Source: a virus. From it: 64,000 nucleotides of DNA. The translations under genes and the position numbers were made by a program. The notes under the pieces were generated by a model. The model did not search any database. It was not told the origin of the DNA and saw only the letters and a list, made by a program, of their open reading frames with translations. The stretch is from IMG/VR virus record IMGVR_UViG_3300032069_000005, positions 22,232 to 86,231 of that record. One strand, 5' to 3'. How positions within the stretch are numbered: position 1 is the first letter of the stretch; each line of letters opens with the position of its first letter. Shown one piece after another: positions 4,205 through 22,506 of this stretch.

Positions 4205-4519
4205 ATGTTTAAAGATATTATATATCAGATTTATTCGGATATAGAAATAAGAATTTATGAATTAGCAGACAAAAAAATACTTATTTTTATTATAGCTGCT
4301 TGGTTATTTAATTTACAAGATAAATTAATATTTAAATGGCTAAGATTGCAGTGTTGGTTATTTGGATGTGAAGAAAGGGGCGGATATGGGGGATTTAATC
4401 TTCCTTGTGATGCTTATTGCTTTTATTGTAATAGATGCGGAGCAACTTATAGTAATTATGAAGGAAACACCAATTATCATTTATTAAAAGGGATTTTTAA
4501 AAGAAAATATAATGCTTAA
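4205..4519 (+). CDS. hypothetical Cys-rich protein
   Basis: ORF with CxxC; overlaps the PolB start. Confidence 0.5.
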   Translation: MFKDIIYQIYSDIEIRIYELADKKILIFIIAAWLFNLQDKLIFKWLRLQCWLFGCEERGGYGGFNLPCDAYCFYCNRCGATYSNYEGNTNYHLLKGIFKRKYNA

Positions 4520-6752
4520 TCTTCCAATCCAAAATATATCCTCAATTGGTCGTGAAATAATTCTCTTTAATCGACAACAAAGCGGAGAGCTTACAATAAT
4601 GAGAGATTTATTGTTCAGTCCCTATTATTATGTTCCTTCTCCTACTGGAATATTTAGAGGATACTTTGGCGGAAAATATGATAAAGTTACTTGTAAAAAT
4701 CCCCGGGAAATAAAAGATAAACGAAATGTAAAAACAGATGGGGAAAGTGATGTTCCATATGTTCGTCGTTATCTACTTGATAAAGTAAATATAATTAAAT
4801 CTCCTACGAGATGGATTATGTTTGATATTGAGACTCTTAGTAAAATTGTTCCTAATCCATTGGTTGCCCCAGACCCAATTACTTCAATAACCGCATATGA
4901 TAATTATGAAAAAAAGTATATTCAATTTTGGTGCGAAAATTATCCATCTGAATATGAACTTATAGATGCGTTTATCAATTATATTAAGGAAAGGAAGCCA
5001 GATTTACTCCTGGCGTATAATATAAATGGATTTGATATGCCTTATTTGGTTACTCGTTTTTCTGACTTCGGAGAAAAGGTTAGCCCCATAGGACAAATTA
5101 AAAAAAGAAATGGATACCCAGAAGGAATCAGTATAGTCGACTATTATGAACTCATTAAAAAAGTATATAAATATAAGAGGCATACTTTAGATTTTATTTA
5201 TTCTGATGAATTTAAAGTTCCCCAGAATTTTATAAAATATAGATTTAATGAGATTAGCCCAATCATTAAAGAAAAGAATCTGGAAGATGTAAAAAAAATG
5301 GTCGCCTTAGAAAATAAATTGCATCTCATTGATTATTTTGATGAACAAAGGAGAATTGCAAAAGTTCTTTGGGAAGATTTATGTCATTTTAGTGTATCTA
5401 TCGATGGATTGATTTTGCAAACTGCGAAATCTAAAGGCGTAGTCTTACCGAGTAAACCAGACGAAGAAGAAAAACTTCGTCGAATAGAGGAAGATGAAAT
5501 CGAAGGCGGATATGTATTTGCCCAACCAGGAAAATATGATGACGCTTCTTTACTAGATATTTCTGGGACATACCCGAATCTAATTACTACATTTAATCTT
5601 GACCCTGTAAATAAGAAGAAAATCCCCAATTCGCAGACAGTAACTATCAGAAAAATCCACATAGAACAGAATCCCAACGCCATTGTGCCAACAGTTGCCA
5701 ATAGATTAATCGCTTCTCGTAAACAAATCCAAAAAGAACTCGAAGGAAAAACAGGCGAAGAATATGATTTATTAAAGAAAAAAGATGATGCACATAAATC
5801 GCTTAATAATGTGGTCTACGGGATTTTGCTTTTTAAGAATTCTCGTATATATGATAAAGACATCGCCGATTGCATTACCTATTTAGCGAGGTTCTTAATT
5901 CGATATACCAAATTTGCTTTAAGAAAATTGGGATATTCAGTCATTTCTTCAGACACCGATTCTATTTTTGTTCATTCCAGAGATTATGAGAAAATAGAAA
6001 AATTATGCAATGAAACATTAATTCCTAACTGGCTTAGACACTTTGGCAAAACAGAAGGAACTCTGAGATTTAAATATGAAGGATATTTTGAGAATGTTGT
6101 TTTTGAAGCACCAAAACATTACAGAGGCAATTTTGTTACTGCTAAGGGCGAACATAAAATGATAAATAAAGGCATCGAAATTGTTCGCAAAGATTCTTCT
6201 AAATTTCAAGAAGAATTTTTAGAGGAATTATATAATAGAATTTTAAAAAATGAAAGTGAGCAAACCATCTCTAATTGGATATTAGAACAAATAAAAGAAT
6301 TACCCAATAAACCATTGAAAAATATTGCATTTCCTTTTCAAATAGTCCAAAAAATTTATAATAGTATTCCTATATCTATTCGAGCACTTCAATATACTGA
6401 CGAAATAATTCCCAATTTTAGTCAAGATTATCATAATGAATTATATTATATTTATGTTAAACCATTTGGAACAGCAGAAAGACATTCCAAAAGTATGCGA
6501 AAGAATAAAGATACTGGAAAAAAGGAATTAAAAGAATCACATACTATAATAAATAAGAACGTCCTCGCCTTTGACGAAAATACTGACCACATAAAAGAAG
6601 TAGATTATTCAGAAATGATTAGACGCAATATTTTAGATAAGGCGGAAAAGCTCTTTGATGTTTTGGGATGGAATAAAGAATTGATTGGGATAAAAAAGAA
6701 AATTTCTAAAAAAGATGCAATTGCCGAACTCAAAAAAAGAGGATTATTATAA
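4512..6752 (+). CDS. polB: family B DNA polymerase
   Basis: Exo motifs FDIE and YNINGFD; polymerase motifs DISGTYPN, KSLNNVVYG, SDTDS, KGIEIVRKD. Confidence 0.95.
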   Translation: MLNLPIQNISSIGREIILFNRQQSGELTIMRDLLFSPYYYVPSPTGIFRGYFGGKYDKVTCKNPREIKDKRNVKTDGESDVPYVRRYLLDKVNIIKSPTRWIMFDIETLSKIVPNPLVAPDPITSITAYDNYEKKYIQFWCENYPSEYELIDAFINYIKERKPDLLLAYNINGFDMPYLVTRFSDFGEKVSPIGQIKKRNGYPEGISIVDYYELIKKVYKYKRHTLDFIYSDEFKVPQNFIKYRFNEISPIIKEKNLEDVKKMVALENKLHLIDYFDEQRRIAKVLWEDLCHFSVSIDGLILQTAKSKGVVLPSKPDEEEKLRRIEEDEIEGGYVFAQPGKYDDASLLDISGTYPNLITTFNLDPVNKKKIPNSQTVTIRKIHIEQNPNAIVPTVANRLIASRKQIQKELEGKTGEEYDLLKKKDDAHKSLNNVVYGILLFKNSRIYDKDIADCITYLARFLIRYTKFALRKLGYSVISSDTDSIFVHSRDYEKIEKLCNETLIPNWLRHFGKTEGTLRFKYEGYFENVVFEAPKHYRGNFVTAKGEHKMINKGIEIVRKDSSKFQEEFLEELYNRILKNESEQTISNWILEQIKELPNKPLKNIAFPFQIVQKIYNSIPISIRALQYTDEIIPNFSQDYHNELYYIYVKPFGTAERHSKSMRKNKDTGKKELKESHTIINKNVLAFDENTDHIKEVDYSEMIRRNILDKAEKLFDVLGWNKELIGIKKKISKKDAIAELKKRGLL

Positions 6753-6895
6753 TATGGATTTATCTAAATTATCTAATGAAGAATTAATGAAAATAGCGAA
6801 AATATCTCCTAAATTTGCGGGGGAAGTATCGAAAAAGATACTCCTTGCTTCCAGCGAGGAAGGTGGGGTGCAAGTCCCTAACCCCGCTCCAAATA
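6723..6895 (+). repeat. 173-bp exact direct repeat, copy 1 (end of upstream gene, mom 5' end, tRNA-like element)
   Basis: Identical to 7776-7948 (offset 1053). Confidence 0.95.
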
Positions 6896-7686
6896 AAGAA
6901 TTAATAATTAAAAAAAAAGAAGAATTGATGCACTCTGATTTTGATTCTTCAAATTTTATGATAGAATTAATTGAACCAAAAATGACATATGAGTGGATGA
7001 TGTATAAACATTATGCACATAAAATACCTCCGGTTATTAAATATTGTTACGGTTTATTTAAAAATAAACAACTCGTGGGGGTTTGTGTTTATGGAATATT
7101 GGCAAATAAAGAATATAATAATGGAAAATGTTTGTTTAAAAATTATCGAGTTGATGTTTTAGAATTAAAAAGATTAGTTGTAGATGATGATTTGCCAAAA
7201 AATACATTATCTTATTTTGTTTCAAAAACATTAAAAATGCTTCCACAACCAACGTGCGTTGTTAGTTATGCAGATAGTAATCAAAATCATCACGGATATA
7301 TTTATCAGGCTACCAATTGGTTATATACAGGTATGGGAAGAGGGAAATTAGCAATAATAGACAAATCAACGGGAGAGGAAATTCACGAGAAAACGATATA
7401 TGACAGGTATGGGACAAATAATATAGAAATTTTAAAAACTAAATTTGATTTTGATACAAAAATTTTAAAAGGAAAATATCGTTATTTAAAATTTATTGGA
7501 AATCATAAACAAAAAAAAGAAATGTTACACTCATTAAAATGGAAACTTTTTCCATATCCAAAAGGCGATAATATCAATTATGATGCTTCTTATAAAATTA
7601 AAAATTTAAATATAAATAAAAAAGGAATAATTCAGGAAAAGAGAGAGGAAGATAGACAGACAGAAAAACAGGAGGAAGAGAGATGA
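6754..7686 (+). CDS. mom: Mom-family (GNAT-fold) adenine modification enzyme, paralog 1
   Basis: KHYAH, VGVCVYG, LELKRL, PKNTLSYFVS, VSYADSNQNHHGYIYQATNWLYTG; ATG 6754 follows the PolB stop. Confidence 0.85.
   Translation: MDLSKLSNEELMKIAKISPKFAGEVSKKILLASSEEGGVQVPNPAPNKELIIKKKEELMHSDFDSSNFMIELIEPKMTYEWMMYKHYAHKIPPVIKYCYGLFKNKQLVGVCVYGILANKEYNNGKCLFKNYRVDVLELKRLVVDDDLPKNTLSYFVSKTLKMLPQPTCVVSYADSNQNHHGYIYQATNWLYTGMGRGKLAIIDKSTGEEIHEKTIYDRYGTNNIEILKTKFDFDTKILKGKYRYLKFIGNHKQKKEMLHSLKWKLFPYPKGDNINYDASYKIKNLNINKKGIIQEKREEDRQTEKQEEER
6817..6891 (+). tRNA. non-canonical tRNA-Gly(UCC)-like element within mom-1
   Basis: Cloverleaf: GCGGGGG-AA-GTATC/GAAAAA/GATAC-T-CCTTG/CTTCCAG/CGAGG-AAGG-TGGGG/TGCAAGT/CCCTA-ACCCCGC-T-CCA. 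Confidence 0.8.
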
Positions 7687-7688
7687 TA
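7626..7688 (+). repeat. 63-bp direct repeat at the mom 3' end, copy 1
   Basis: Matches 8643-8705 with one mismatch; encodes IIQEKREEDRQTEKQEEER*. Confidence 0.95.
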
Positions 7689-7805
7689 TTGAAATTTCAA
7701 CAACATAATGGTTGGGTATATGTTTCTGATTTATATAAAGTAGAAACCAGACAAATGTCAAAAAAAGAAGCACTCGCCGAACTCAAAAAAAGAGGATTAT
7801 TATAA
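7683..7805 (+). CDS. 40-aa chimeric ORF between the mom genes (possible remnant)
   Basis: MILKFQQHNGW...SKKEALAELKKRGLL*: N-terminus resembles ORF 8700, C-terminus equals that of PolB; GGAGG SD. Confidence 0.5.
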   Translation: MILKFQQHNGWVYVSDLYKVETRQMSKKEALAELKKRGLL

Positions 7806-7948
7806 TATGGATTTATCTAAATTATCTAATGAAGAATTAATGAAAATAGCGAAAATATCTCCTAAATTTGCGGGGGAAGTATCGAAAAAGATACTCCTTG
7901 CTTCCAGCGAGGAAGGTGGGGTGCAAGTCCCTAACCCCGCTCCAAATA
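7776..7948 (+). repeat. 173-bp exact direct repeat, copy 2
   Basis: Identical to 6723-6895. Confidence 0.95.
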
Positions 7949-8703
7949 TAAATAAAATCATAAAACAAAAATATGATAAAATACAAGACAATAAATCACA
8001 ATCGAAAGAGATAAAAAATTTTAATTTAAAAGATTTAAATATGAAAGAATTGGAATTTCAAATAACTAAAGAATTTATTGTTAAGAATCATTACAGTCAT
8101 ACAATTTCTTCATCTATAAAAGCAAGTATTGGATTTTTTTATAATAATAAATTAGTTACTGCTATTGTTTATGGTCATCCAATTGGAATTAATGTTGGTT
8201 CTTGGTTGCAAGTTCCTGAAGGAAGTTATGCCGAATTAATTAGAGTTTTTAGTGTTGATGAGTTACCAAAAAATACGGAAAGTTATTGTTTGGCAAAGTC
8301 ATTTGAATTTTTGAAGAAAAATAAACCAGAATTAAAATATTTAATTAGTTATGCAGACCCCACTCAAGGGCACGTAGGTTATATTTATCAAGCAACTAAT
8401 TGGTATTATGTTGGTAAACAGATAGGAATGGATAGAATTTTTAAAATTGATGGCAAACAAGTTCATAGAAGAACCGCCAATGCTGCTTATGGAACATCTT
8501 CAGTTAAAAAATTATCAGAATTATTAGGCAAAAGATTTGAAGTATCAATAACATATCCAAAACACATTTATTTAATGTGTTTGGGTTCTCGTAAAGAAAA
8601 AAAAGAATGGTATAATAAATTCAAACAATTACCATATCCTAAAATAATTCAAGAAAAGAGAGAGGAAGATAGACAGACAGAAAAACAGGAGGAAGAGAGA
8701 TGA
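7807..8703 (+). CDS. mom: Mom-family adenine modification enzyme, paralog 2
   Basis: KNHYSH, AIVYG, AELIRV, PKNTESYCL, ISYADPTQGHVGYIYQATNWYYVG. Confidence 0.85.
   Translation: MDLSKLSNEELMKIAKISPKFAGEVSKKILLASSEEGGVQVPNPAPNINKIIKQKYDKIQDNKSQSKEIKNFNLKDLNMKELEFQITKEFIVKNHYSHTISSSIKASIGFFYNNKLVTAIVYGHPIGINVGSWLQVPEGSYAELIRVFSVDELPKNTESYCLAKSFEFLKKNKPELKYLISYADPTQGHVGYIYQATNWYYVGKQIGMDRIFKIDGKQVHRRTANAAYGTSSVKKLSELLGKRFEVSITYPKHIYLMCLGSRKEKKEWYNKFKQLPYPKIIQEKREEDRQTEKQEEER
7870..7944 (+). tRNA. non-canonical tRNA-Gly(UCC)-like element within mom-2
   Basis: Identical to 6817-6891. Confidence 0.8.
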
Positions 8704-8705
8704 TA
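8643..8705 (+). repeat. 63-bp direct repeat, copy 2
   Basis: Matches 7626-7688. Confidence 0.95.
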
Positions 8706-8963
8706 GTAAAAATTATTCAAGAAAATGGAGCATTGTTTTATGATGGATTTGAAAAAATCAGATATGAATATAAAACCAGTGAAGAAATGGAAACCATCGA
8801 TACAAACGCTATGTGGATAAACAGTAAGTTGCCTCTGAGCGGAATTTTGATTATAGGTCGTAGAAAACCGATAATTGGAACTGACCCAGAATTTACTATT
8901 AGAACAAATGGGGAGACATATCTTCTTAATGATGAAGGTAAGACGATAGAAAGGATTAGATAA
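8700..8963 (+). CDS. hypothetical phage protein
   Basis: ATGA-coupled to mom-2; ends YLLNDEGKTIERI. Confidence 0.65.
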   Translation: MIVKIIQENGALFYDGFEKIRYEYKTSEEMETIDTNAMWINSKLPLSGILIIGRRKPIIGTDPEFTIRTNGETYLLNDEGKTIERIR

Positions 8964-11925: not shown

Positions 11926-12714
11926 ATGGAAATAAAAGAAATGTTAAATAAAATATTTTTAGAAACTAAAAATGGGTTTGAGTATGTAAAAGAAATTCCC
12001 GACAAGAGTATTGATATGATACTTTGCGATTTACCTTATGGCACGACTGCCTGTAAGTGGGATGCCGTTATTCCTTTTGAGCCACTCTGGGAACAGTATA
12101 AACGAATAATAAAAGACAATGGGGCAATAGTTTTAACAGCTTCACAACCTTTTACCAGTGCTTTGGTGATGAGTAATATTAAGATGTTTAAGTATGAGTG
12201 GATATGGGAGAAAAACACAGGAGCAGGATTTATCCACGCAAAAAATAGACCACTAAAAAGACACGAAAATGTATTAGTTTTTAGCAAAGGAAGTATGGGT
12301 CATATAACTTTATTGGGTGAGAAAAGGATGATATACAACCCCCAAAACTTAATAAAACAAAAAACTATCAGAAAAAATGGTGTAAGTGGAACAACTATTG
12401 GCGATAGACCATCACATCACGATAATTTAATTTCAGAATTTATGAATTATCCAACAACAATTCTTAACTATAAAAATGATAAGGGTCTCCACCCAACTCA
12501 AAAACCAGTAGCCCTATTTGAGTATCTTATTAAAACCTACACCAACGAAGGAGATATTGTTCTTGATAATTGTATAGGTAGCGGAACAACTGCTGTAGCG
12601 TGTAAAAGATTAAATAGAAATTTTATAGGTATGGAGATTTATCAAAACTACATAGATATTAGTTATAAAAGATTATCTGAAACAAAACAAGGAGAAGGAT
12701 TATGTTTGAAATAA
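11926..12714 (+). CDS. DNA methyltransferase (N6-A/N4-C, beta class)
   Basis: DLPYG, HPTQKP, VLDNCIGSGTT. Confidence 0.95.
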   Translation: MEIKEMLNKIFLETKNGFEYVKEIPDKSIDMILCDLPYGTTACKWDAVIPFEPLWEQYKRIIKDNGAIVLTASQPFTSALVMSNIKMFKYEWIWEKNTGAGFIHAKNRPLKRHENVLVFSKGSMGHITLLGEKRMIYNPQNLIKQKTIRKNGVSGTTIGDRPSHHDNLISEFMNYPTTILNYKNDKGLHPTQKPVALFEYLIKTYTNEGDIVLDNCIGSGTTAVACKRLNRNFIGMEIYQNYIDISYKRLSETKQGEGLCLK

Positions 12715-13643
12715 TAGAATATAAAAGTCCAGGGCATCCAGATACTTTAACAGATTTGGTGGTTGAGGAGTGTGCTACTTTTTTGGATAAGTATTATCTT
12801 TCTATTTATAATAAAATTCTGCATTATAATGTTGATAAAGCAGTTTTTCTTGCTGGAGATGCCAGAATTGATTTTAAAGATTGGAAAATAATAAAGCAAC
12901 CTTGTTTTATTTTGGCAGGACAAGTTAGTAAAATAACAAAAGATTTAAAATGTGGATTAACTGATATAATAGAAAAAACAATAAAAAAATACTTGCCTAA
13001 TCTTAAACAATTCAAAATAGAAATTAGATGTAATAATGTTGTTGCTAATCTTTCTAACATAGCAGAATCAAAAGAAATACTTGCTAATGATACTTCATTT
13101 GGAGTAGGCTATTATCCTTATTCTAAATCAGAACAAAAAGTTTTTGCTATTAAAAAAGAATTGGATGAAATGATTGCTTTACAACAAATACCCATTGGCG
13201 AACTTTATAAAATAATGTATACCCCTAAAACTATAAGTATTTCTGCTCCGCTTTATGTTCAACGAGTTCATAATAGAAAAGAATACGCCAAATATAAGAA
13301 ACAAATAGAAAAGAAAGTATCTAAGTATGGAAAAATTATTTTTAATCCTGATTTTGAAAATGGATTTCCTTATTTAACAATTACAGGAAGTAGTATTGAA
13401 TGTGGAGACGATGGACAAGTGGGAAGAGGAAATAGATACAATAATTTAATTACTCCCTGCCGACCAATGACCATAGAAGCATATCATGGAAAAAATAATA
13501 AAAATCACGTTGGTAAATTATATAGTAAAATGGCTTTTGAAAGAGCAAAAGAAATCTATGAAAAAACTGGAAAATATACAGAAGTCATTTTAGTTAGTAA
13601 AATAGGCAAAGCGATAGCCGATTATGAAGAATATATAAAATGA
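12702..13643 (+). CDS. S-adenosylmethionine synthetase (archaeal-type MAT family)
   Basis: GHPDTLTD, HYNVDK, ANDTSFGVGY, GDDGQVGRGNR, GKNNKNHVGKLY. Confidence 0.9.
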   Translation: MFEIIEYKSPGHPDTLTDLVVEECATFLDKYYLSIYNKILHYNVDKAVFLAGDARIDFKDWKIIKQPCFILAGQVSKITKDLKCGLTDIIEKTIKKYLPNLKQFKIEIRCNNVVANLSNIAESKEILANDTSFGVGYYPYSKSEQKVFAIKKELDEMIALQQIPIGELYKIMYTPKTISISAPLYVQRVHNRKEYAKYKKQIEKKVSKYGKIIFNPDFENGFPYLTITGSSIECGDDGQVGRGNRYNNLITPCRPMTIEAYHGKNNKNHVGKLYSKMAFERAKEIYEKTGKYTEVILVSKIGKAIADYEEYIK

Positions 13644-21857: not shown

Positions 21858-22506
21858 ATGAATATTTATTTTTCTGCCGACTGGCATCTTTAACCACGCA
21901 AATATAATAAAATATTGCGGAAGAACTGCGTTTATGAATGATGAAGAACTTTCAATTTATAATAAATTAAAAGATAGACCTCAAGAAGAACAAAAACAAT
22001 TTAAAATAAGTAAAGAATCTACTATTAAAATGAATGAAAGATTAATCAACAATTGCAATGAAAGAGTAAAAGAAGATGATATATTGATTTTTGATGGAGA
22101 TTTAGGGTTTAAATCTGGAACTGGCAGAGGGGAAGGAGAACCAGAAAAATTACAAAAATATGTCGAACAAATCAAATGTAAGCATATATATTGGATAGAA
22201 GGCAATCACGATGCAAAAGGCAAAAATAGTTTTAAAACTCCCCTCCAAAAAATGATTATCAAATGTGGGGGGAAAAGAATTTGTATAGTGCATAACCCCG
22301 AATTCGCAGATGTAAACTATGAAATCAACTTAACCGCCCACGTTCATAATAATTGGGAAATGAGGAGAATTCGCAAAGGATTTTCTTACACAGATGCTAT
22401 AAACATAGGCGTAGATGTGTGGAACTTTTATCCCGTAAACTGGCAAGAAATTTGGCAAAGATATTCGCATTACTTAAAGGAATTAAAATGCACCGAATCT
22501 GTATAG
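21858..22506 (+). CDS. calcineurin-like phosphoesterase, needs a +1 frameshift at CTT-TAA (21888-21893)
   Basis: MNIYFSADWHL then +1 frame NHANIIKYCGR..., GD, GNHD, AHVH, NIGVD. Confidence 0.75.

Follow-up and report, generated by a model that had tools for sequence, protein, structure and literature searches.

Near their 5′ ends, two open reading frames (ORFs) of the Mom family in a viral genome contain the same 75-nt stretch, which folds as a tRNA-Gly-like cloverleaf and ends in an encoded CCA. The locus raises the question of whether such a stretch serves as protein code, as an RNA, or as both. This question was addressed in a window of 64,000 nt (positions 22,232–86,231 of IMG/VR record IMGVR_UViG_3300032069_000005; coordinates below are those of the window) and in related loci. 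As a whole, the explanation that fits best, to which we give about an even chance, is that the element is dual-use, encoding part of the protein and also yielding an RNA that would provide Mom with a private glycine donor.

Two Mom ORFs and their start context

The features of the locus are as follows.

4512–6752, + strand: family B DNA polymerase gene (polB; Pfam DNA_pol_B, E 1e-31; exonuclease domain, E 1.5e-14)
6738–6743, + strand: Shine-Dalgarno-like AGAGGA, 10 nt 5′ of ATG 6754
6754–7686, + strand: Mom paralog 1 ORF, 310 aa, L001-related type (Pfam PF25680)
6754–6816, + strand: leader of 21 codons, beginning MDLSKLSNEEL, the conserved Mom ORF start
6817–6891, + strand: tRNA-Gly(UCC)-like cloverleaf, copy 1, with U73 and encoded CCA, codons 22–46 of paralog 1 (fold, covariation, model R1)
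6892–7008, + strand: AT-rich linker and ordinary Mom N-terminal region up to the HY motif, paralog 1
7683–7805, + strand: 40-aa chimeric ORF at the tandem-duplication junction (repeats D1 and D2, translations, Logan junction contig)
7791–7796, + strand: Shine-Dalgarno-like AGAGGA, second copy, 5′ of ATG 7807
7807–8703, + strand: Mom paralog 2 ORF, 298 aa, L025-related type (Pfam PF25680)
7807–7869, + strand: leader, copy 2, with the same letters as copy 1
7870–7944, + strand: tRNA-Gly(UCC)-like cloverleaf, copy 2, identical to copy 1, codons 22–46 of paralog 2
7945–8089, + strand: linker and N-terminal region, paralog 2
8700–8963, + strand: downstream ORF, 87 aa

Both ORFs match Pfam family PF25680, scoring 132.5 and 141.8 bits where the cut-off is 27.1 (aa 68–270 of paralog 1, E 2e-38; aa 77–279 of paralog 2, E 3e-41). 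Paralog 1 shares 54% identity with the product of locus L001 over residues 1–294, and paralog 2 shares 77% identity with that of locus L025 over residues 1–298.

The use of glycyl-tRNA by Mom for DNA modification was shown only in 2023–2026. According to the main text on the phage Mu enzyme (Silva et al. 2026, PMC13219725; PDB 8bv8), which belongs to the same family PF25680, its co-substrate is glycyl-tRNA-Gly; the terminal adenosine is needed and Gly-tRNA-Ala is rejected, and H58, Y59, R111, S124, D149, R151 and Y159 are named as active-site residues. The Mom profile matched the solved Mu structure with an E-value of 3.2e-38. With an offset of 9 between the numbering of the PDB chain and that of the paper, which we infer here, the equivalents of H58, Y59, R111, S124, D149 and Y159 show little or no variation across 11 sequences. 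The column of R151, which is essential in Mu, is variable in the same 11 sequences, and the Mom proteins studied here have no conserved equivalent of this residue.

The sequence facts in an earlier note on this DNA, which described the tRNA-like element as lying inside two Mom-family ORFs, were all confirmed. ATG 6754 and ATG 7807 directly follow an upstream stop (TAA 6750–6752, the polB stop, and TAA 7803–7805), with one base between, so that each ATG begins at the second base after the stop. Both ORFs read the 75-mer as codons 22–46 and then continue without a stop into PF25680, and the linkers after the repeat differ in sequence and in length (75 vs 102 nt to about the Pfam start). The last codons of polB (K-R-G-L-L) form the Shine-Dalgarno sequence of the next ORF, and this tail motif is kept in relatives; in four of them (L001, L025, L028 and L037) the same motif (GAGGA) lies 8 nt before a TAATG overlap of the polB stop with the Mom ORF start.

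The two copies lie in an exact repeat (6723–6895 = 7776–7948), and a second repeat, D2, pairs 7626–7711 with 8643–8728. In Logan assemblies the exact repeat is merged into one 173-nt contig; contigs from two DNA runs break at the repeat, and a junction-specific contig covers 7659–7805. The 40-aa ORF at the junction starts like the ORF at 8700 and ends like the polB tail. The Shine-Dalgarno sequence of the ORF at 8700 (AGGAGG) lies within an acidic C-terminal tail common to both Mom paralogs. A promoter scan was uninformative (43 promoter-like sites vs 31.9 ± 6.1 expected), and a terminator scan found none on the + strand.

The 75-nt cloverleaf

The 75-mer folds into a clean cloverleaf of −33.9 kcal/mol (z −3.4), and none of 200 shuffled sequences was equally stable; copy 1 scores 97.7 bits against model R1. 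Six distinct DNA variants of the fold were available from related sediment phages. Over 21 base pairs, 99.2% of the cells are paired, and both sides have changed in 8 of the 21 pairs. The pairing score of the six variants was reached by 0/500 shuffles, and slid controls were only 32–46% paired. While the four helices covary, the anticodon loop, the discriminator and the CCA stay constant. Invariant sites are spread over the first, second and third codon positions of the fold (16/25, 20/25 and 17/25 respectively); the lack of third-position relaxation indicates that the constraint acts on RNA. An attP-like DNA site was considered for the element and rejected, as the compensatory changes argue for RNA.

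G1-C72, C2-G71, U73, C35, C36 and the CCA are invariant in 6/6 variants, and apart from the CCA these fit the bacterial tRNA-Gly identity set, which additionally includes G3-C70 (PMC9976931, Table 1). The third acceptor pair is G-C in two of the six variants (the window and L029), A-U in three and an A/C mismatch in one. In canonical tRNA the elbow is built from U8, G18-G19 and T54-Ψ55-C56. The elbow is non-canonical in all six variants, with A8, a D loop of GAAAAA and a T loop of TGCAAGT. Judged from its sequence, the element is a deformed tRNA-Gly, in which the features read by a bacterial glycyl-tRNA synthetase (GlyRS) are kept and the elbow features of a decoding tRNA are absent. Recognition by RNase P could be weaker as a result of this elbow.

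Standard tools did not detect the element. ARAGORN with default settings reported no tRNA gene in the window or in 25 loci, and Rfam RF00005 gave no match up to an E-value of 10 in 3.5 kb or in 111 nt; ARAGORN called a tRNA-Gly(tcc) only when its threshold was set to 90% or its mitochondrial mode was used. ARAGORN found no other tRNA in the 86-kb record or in a related genome, G004.

Further copies were sought by several routes. An exact 30-mer from the 3′ half of the fold had no match in viral contigs. Gapped loop patterns matched 5 viral stretches, 12 metagenome stretches (5 with the element, 7 chance or coding look-alikes) and 5 genome stretches, none of the last being real, and a pattern for the 5′ half gave nothing new. 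With model R1, none of 22 other Mom loci yielded a copy. Relaxed ARAGORN detected none in these loci and also missed the copies of L001 and L025, so it is insensitive. At the protein level, no shorter form (30–162 aa) with the shared N-terminus was found; a search for longer, fused forms likewise returned none, which counts for little since it did not recover the known L029 fusion.

Reading frame through the fold

The phase of the fold within the Mom ORF is the same in 7/7 DNA contexts, in which the polB tails and C-termini are 38–82% identical. Leaders of 54, 63 and 66 nt occur, and the stretch from CCA to the HY motif varies from 114 to 159 nt; in both cases all length differences are multiples of three. 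In the linkers, frame 0 has no stop in any of the seven contexts, whereas each other frame has 1–9; the chance of an open linker frame after shuffling is 0.006–0.06 per context. Selection for openness within the 75-mer alone was dropped as an argument, because in each of the six variants two of its three frames are free of stops, which makes the openness of the fold by itself non-significant. The fused N-terminus is also kept in six database proteins (five new contexts and one near-copy of L001), besides the two in the window and the L025 product, so that the fold lies inside a conserved open frame in 7/7 DNA contexts and in 12/12 when protein contexts are included.

The encoded peptide itself is poorly constrained. 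The dN/dS ratio is 0.32–1.20 in the linker vs 0.12–0.53 in the Mom domain; the protein sequence of the linker is thus barely constrained, and the case for translation rests on the open frames and the missing starts described below. AlphaFold2 (AF2) gave pLDDT values below 50 for residues 18–46. The 25 codons of the fold encode a spacer, poorly conserved and probably disordered, that belongs to an N-terminal extension of Mom. That ribosomes hop over the fold was also considered and rejected: the sequence has neither a stop nor matching codons for take-off and landing.

In G004, a complete 101.6-kb genome with terminal repeats, polB, a single copy of the cloverleaf and Mom form one ORF of 1066 aa. 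Cutting at the fold would leave its polB mRNA without a stop codon, which argues that cutting is rare or late.

The constant phase, the gaps in multiples of three, the Shine-Dalgarno sequence with the overlap of ATG and polB stop, and the loss of the canonical Mom start in 5/7 contexts indicate that selection very likely maintains reading through the fold. The interpretation in the earlier note is thus partly supported: selection on the frame, which it had proposed, stands up.

Proposed mechanism and alternative explanations

From the observed fold, its covariation, the conserved frame, the disappearance of other starts and the fusion to polB, we infer a scheme that comprises translation, cutting, charging, use by Mom and a regulatory balance. 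Translation would begin at the conserved ATG, which is coupled to the 3′ end of polB, and run across the fold to the Mom domain. From some transcripts or decay remnants, host RNase P and 3′ exonucleases would produce an RNA of 75 nt with CCA at its end; this RNA would receive glycine from host GlyRS and then serve Mom as a private donor for DNA adenine modification. As a cut transcript no longer makes Mom, enzyme and donor would be drawn from one RNA pool. A more far-reaching possibility, which we put forward tentatively and consider clearly less probable than dual use as such, is that embedding the donor in translated mom is a design principle: ribosome traffic would gate RNase P, so that each transcript yields enzyme first and, when its translation has ceased, becomes one long-lived glycine carrier that escapes EF-Tu.

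One objection to dual use is that, in the window, the tRNA-like gene merely lies upstream and Mom is made from internal starts at 6928 and 8041, the long ORF being an unused by-product. The earlier note had named a start downstream of the CCA as the finding that would contradict its proposal. Mom genes without the fold start 21–27 codons before the HY motif in 24/24 cases. Of the three in-frame ATGs between 6892 and 7008 (6928, 6958 and 6982), 6928 falls in this range, 27 codons before HY, and has an A/G-rich upstream context like that of some ordinary Mom genes (L003 and L007); a linker dN/dS near 1 would also suit internal initiation, and L029 has a TTG 25 codons before HY. Across the family, however, a start at the usual position is found in only 2/7 contexts with the fold and is absent there in 5/7. 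L001 and L028 have no in-frame ATG, GTG or TTG between CCA and the HY motif or Mom core, and no Met occurs between CCA and HY in 8 of the 12 contexts. Most family members have no other usable start. In paralog 2, the sole in-frame ATG between 7945 and 8089 is 8041; it lies only 16 codons before HY, a shorter distance than in all 24 ordinary Mom genes, and is ATT in L025. Additionally, a Shine-Dalgarno sequence is present before the upstream ATG and absent before 6928, 6958 and 8041, the linkers are open in every DNA context, and a truncation of 20 residues already lowers the activity of Mu Mom (PMC13219725, main text). A start after the CCA is therefore contradicted for the family and possible for paralog 1, which might also start at ATG 6928; as an account of the window, exclusive internal initiation is improbable.

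Two further alternatives were considered. The fold could act in cis, without ever being released, as a tRNA-Gly decoy, bound by Mom, GlyRS or another tRNA-binding protein, which slows ribosomes and limits a toxic enzyme. Mom recognizes the tRNA-Gly body, as Gly-tRNA-Ala is not used (PMC13219725, main text), Mu Mom is described as highly toxic and tightly regulated (PMC7261163), the fold is always inside the ORF, and the G004 fusion tolerates a fold from whose cutting it would suffer. On the other hand, the fold begins 63 nt after the ATG (54–66 nt in relatives) and does not overlap the ribosome-binding site, which makes a classical operator role unlikely. Moreover, U73 and the terminal A of the CCA occupy synonymous codon positions yet are invariant in 6/6 variants, which is more in keeping with a free 3′ end that can be charged than with a decoy inside the mRNA, and Mu Mom is sensitive to the terminal adenosine (PMC13219725, main text). 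We regard the decoy as unlikely, albeit less so than either internal initiation or a purely structural role. An alternative hairpin between leader and acceptor can form in the window and is absent from relatives lacking those codons. The structural role would make the fold a pause site, a stabilizer or a recombination arm for Mom cassettes, its likeness to tRNA-Gly being ancestral with no part as a donor. Conservation is far higher in the leader and fold than in the adjacent polB tails, three different Mom types follow the same 5′ module, as cassette exchange predicts, and the window contains a tandem junction. Nevertheless, covarying helices around a fixed anticodon loop, discriminator and CCA are the pattern of a synthetase substrate and not of a generic hairpin, and a recombination arm needs no base-pair compensation; this role therefore seems very doubtful. 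The preferred reading remains a translated element that would also be released as a glycine donor.

Comparison with known systems

A tRNA-Gly-like locus inside mom homologues was already published in 2011: Dehalococcoides ssrA-specific genomic islands carry a tRNA-Gly-like "pseudo-tRNA" inside a mom homologue (McMurdie et al. 2011, PMC3146451). The conserved locus of ~76 bp described there lies within the first 150 bp of a ~270-aa Mom homologue, and here 75 nt lie at nt 64–138 of Mom ORFs of 298–310 aa, a likeness of position, size and tRNA-Gly type as described rather than of compared RNA sequences. The Dehalococcoides element belongs to a bacterial integrative island, whereas the present one is part of a lytic-type phage replication module coupled to polB; the main text of PMC3146451 gives no function, calls Mom a methylation-type protein and contains no frame analysis.

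Mu mom is controlled by Com and other factors, and is not known to be controlled by a fold within its ORF. Mu uses host tRNAs and carries no tRNA itself. The main text of PMC13219725 makes no mention of embedded or phage-encoded tRNAs, and a literature search, at the level of main texts, for an in-frame tRNA in a phage ORF found nothing relevant.

As described in PMC7826273, non-proteogenic tRNA-Gly isoacceptors of Staphylococcus serve FmhB, FemA and FemB. Like the RNA proposed here, they are dedicated glycine donors for a GNAT-fold aminoacyl-transferase and have a UCC anticodon; their T loop has TGC or TGT instead of TTC (TGC here), and charging by GlyRS is retained while EF-Tu is thought to be avoided. 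Unlike the present element, they are free-standing chromosomal genes outside ORFs, are confined to staphylococci and act in peptidoglycan synthesis (PMC7826273).

Two further classes of RNA bear some resemblance to the proposed scheme. In bacterial tRNA-tufB-type operons and in MALAT1, the source of mascRNA, RNase P releases a tRNA-shaped RNA from a transcript that also gives another functional RNA. There the tRNA lies outside the translated region, whereas here it is in frame, so that cutting and translation would exclude each other. The thrS leader exemplifies tRNA-mimic translational operators, in which part of the mRNA folds like the tRNA that the encoded protein, or one related to it, binds; such operators overlap with the ribosome-binding site and have no complete cloverleaf with CCA, in contrast to the present fold, which lies 63 nt inside the ORF.

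Implications

For annotation, the locus indicates that default tRNA finders overlook such RNAs and that the length of these Mom ORFs does not stem from mis-called starts. L001 and L028, which have no alternative start, paralog 1, with an internal start at the usual position, and G004, with its natural polB fusion, are useful members of the family for further study. An in-frame tRNA-Gly mimic in mom would be a natural system for the co-expression of an enzyme and its RNA co-substrate from one sequence, and it raises the questions of how such a tRNA stays off the ribosome and whether processing of the RNA competes with translation on a single transcript. If the more tentative gating idea is true, the gate would determine in what order, and in what ratio, a toxic DNA-modifying enzyme and its private co-substrate are made, and the fusion of polB, fold and Mom would extend this ribosome gate to the replicase.

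Organization of the locus

The 86,231-nt virus record to which the window belongs comes from a sediment metagenome. Both of its Mom-family ORFs open with an identical 21-codon leader and then an identical 75-nt tRNA-Gly-like element (the fold; 6817–6891 and 7870–7944), and the linkers that follow the repeat are unrelated between the paralogs. Comparison with the sequence and translations showed the earlier note's description of both ORFs, their starts, the fold and the frame to be right in every detail.

Features of the locus (window coordinates)
4512–6752, + strand: family B DNA polymerase gene (polB), upstream of both Mom ORFs
6754–7686, + strand: Mom-family ORF, paralog 1; 310 aa, Pfam PF25680 from residue 68 onward only
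7807–8703, + strand: Mom-family ORF, paralog 2; 298 aa, PF25680 from residue 77 onward only
6723–6895 = 7776–7948: exact repeat spanning the leader and 75-mer copies
7683–7805, + strand: 40-aa chimeric ORF; start like ORF 8700–8963, end like the polB tail
7626–7805 and 8643–8728: tandem-duplication junction; the two Mom paralogs have a common acidic C-terminal tail

The two paralogs are a tandem duplication whose junction created the chimeric ORF; their shared acidic tail contains AGGAGG for the next gene. A contig specific to the junction, and equal depth of the two Mom gene bodies in an independent assembly of the probable source run, fit a real tandem duplication. Paired Mom paralogs seem to recur among related loci: L004 and L011 have two tandem Mom genes, yet lack the fold. 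Three different Mom types in relatives are all preceded by the same leader-plus-fold module, an arrangement that suggests cassette exchange.

Mu Mom is reported to move glycine from Gly-tRNA-Gly onto adenine N6 of double-stranded DNA, with a requirement for the terminal adenosine and without accepting Gly-tRNA-Ala (PMC13219725). Both paralogs retain equivalents of H58, Y59, R111, S124, D149 and Y159, but not of R151. In the Mom protein alignment, the column of Mu R151 (reported essential in Mu Mom) has no conserved counterpart in the clade; three positions further on there is an almost invariant His. Elsewhere in the window (11926–13643), the genes for an N6/N4 DNA methylase (PF01555, E 2e-33) and an archaeal-type S-adenosylmethionine synthetase (PF01941, E 6e-69) overlap; the two look like another module in which an enzyme is encoded together with the producer of its co-substrate.

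The tRNA-like element

The 75-mer forms a clean cloverleaf that has a UCC anticodon and U as its discriminator base and ends in an encoded CCA (−33.9 kcal/mol, z −3.4). It is missed by ARAGORN at default settings and by the Rfam tRNA model, and is named tRNA-Gly(tcc) by ARAGORN only at a 90% threshold; ARAGORN found no further tRNA anywhere in the 86-kb record, nor in G004, a relative whose 101.6-kb genome is complete. Searching viral, metagenome and genome collections by sequence pattern yielded five more distinct variants on seven other records; bacterial genomes gave only chance matches. When the six sequences are aligned, 99.2% of cells are paired and both sides have changed in 8 of 21 pairs, among them four of the five anticodon-stem pairs, a level of pairing reached by none of 500 shuffles. 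The CCA is invariant, as are G1-C72, C2-G71, U73, C35 and C36, which match bacterial glycine identity elements (Table 1, PMC9976931); the third acceptor pair, G3-C70, is retained in just two of the six variants. The fold differs from decoding tRNAs in having A8, GAAAAA as its D loop and TGCAAGT as its T loop; TGC for TTC in the T loop is a reported feature of staphylococcal non-proteogenic tRNA-Gly (PMC7826273). The cloverleaf RNA is real, but it is no ordinary tRNA.

The best Rfam match (6823–6884) is the tymovirus tRNA-like 3′ element, which scores 15.5 bits (gathering score 40; E 0.2 in 111 nt); the two have a GGGUGCAA..CCC T arm in common, and this sub-threshold likeness is probably convergent. 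Over 6876–6926, record 4 of sequencing run X1 is a low-depth contig (3.4x) with 4 differences in 51 nt and GTTCGAGC right before 6876. It looks like a co-occurring relative with an ordinary TTCGA T loop, to which P0003, a database Mom protein with a fused N-terminus (VRD replacing VQV), may be similar.

Conservation of the reading frame

The proposal that the frame is kept through the fold into Mom is borne out: fold position 1 is codon position 1 in all seven DNA contexts, and the frame continues into Mom. These lineages are old, as the C-terminal 250 residues of polB in fold-bearing phages are only 38–82% identical. Leader lengths (54, 63 and 66 nt) and distances from the CCA to the HY motif of Mom (114, 129, 150, 156 or 159 nt), differ in every case by multiples of three. 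The linkers are very AT-rich (12–22% GC) and open in frame 0 only, each other frame having 1–9 stops; the probability of an open frame after linker shuffling is 0.006–0.06 per context. Among proteins of 30–162 aa in the protein collection, none bears the leader and fold peptide alone. Nucleotides 1–18 of the leader (6754–6771) are identical in four of five variants, with one change in L037, although polB tails are only ~40–80% identical.

G004 is a complete genome with terminal repeats (101,595 nt). Its leader is absent, and polB, its only fold copy and Mom form a single ORF with no stop between them. Ribosomes on this polB must traverse the fold, because the first stop codon lies beyond it.

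L029 4186–7405 = L059 12451–15651, − strand: G004 polB-fold-Mom ORF, 1066 aa

Other measures weaken the case for translation. The linker peptide is nearly unconstrained (dN/dS 0.32–1.20 vs 0.12–0.53 for the Mom domain). Two of the three frames through the 75-mer are open regardless, and conservation is much the same at codon positions 1, 2 and 3 (16, 20 and 17 of 25 sites invariant), so the fold peptide follows the RNA. AF2 pLDDT is below 50 for residues 18–46, consistent with a passenger spacer.

Predicted translation starts

In the window, AGAGGA lies 10 nt before the upstream ATG; in L001, L025, L028 and L037 the motif is 8 nt before an ATG that overlaps the polB stop as TAATG. Many genes of the window's phage use similar AGAGGA-type motifs. 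All 24 Mom genes of 22 fold-less related loci start 21–27 codons before HY. Such a start exists in only two of seven fold-bearing contexts, ATG 6928 in paralog 1 (27 codons) and a TTG in L029 (25 codons), and Met is absent between CCA and HY in 8 of 12 contexts (seven DNA and five further database proteins). The context of ATG 6928 is A/G-rich, resembling some ordinary Mom genes, so that, given its normal position, paralog 1 may start internally too, or instead. ATG 8041 of paralog 2 is 16 codons before HY, below all 24 ordinary genes, and is ATT in L025.

Possible function and alternatives

The reading we favor, held at about even confidence, is that the frame is read through the fold and that the fold is also cut out, charged and used as glycine donor for Mom; everything beyond frame conservation we infer. 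The invariant synthetase identity elements and CCA, which lie partly at synonymous codon positions, point to an RNA that needs a free, chargeable 3′ end, for which the fold would have to be excised. Translation and release would be mutually exclusive per molecule, in that cutting would remove the sole Mom start codon in most members. The G004 fusion suggests that cutting would be slow, or would act on decaying mRNA.

An uncut cis decoy would leave the fold in the mRNA; the invariant U73 and CCA suit a free, chargeable 3′ end better, and we regard the decoy as rather unlikely. Improbable, and for this window only, is a plain upstream gene: the start downstream of the CCA raised in the earlier note fits the position of ATG 6928, but fails for L001 and L028, which have no ATG, GTG or TTG between CCA and HY. 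We give equally little credence to a structural or recombination element with no donor role.

The arrangement has a published precedent. A 2011 paper on ssrA islands of Dehalococcoides, which also covers a single marine fosmid, describes a conserved 76-bp tRNA-Gly-like 'pseudo-tRNA' inside the first 150 bp of a mom homologue and proposes no function for it (PMC3146451). The 2026 Mom paper says nothing in its main text about embedded or phage-encoded tRNAs (PMC13219725), and full-text literature searching found no account of a tRNA read in frame within a phage ORF. What is new for this clade is a frame conserved across deep divergence, the loss of the canonical Mom start, the coupling to polB, and a natural polB fusion in G004.
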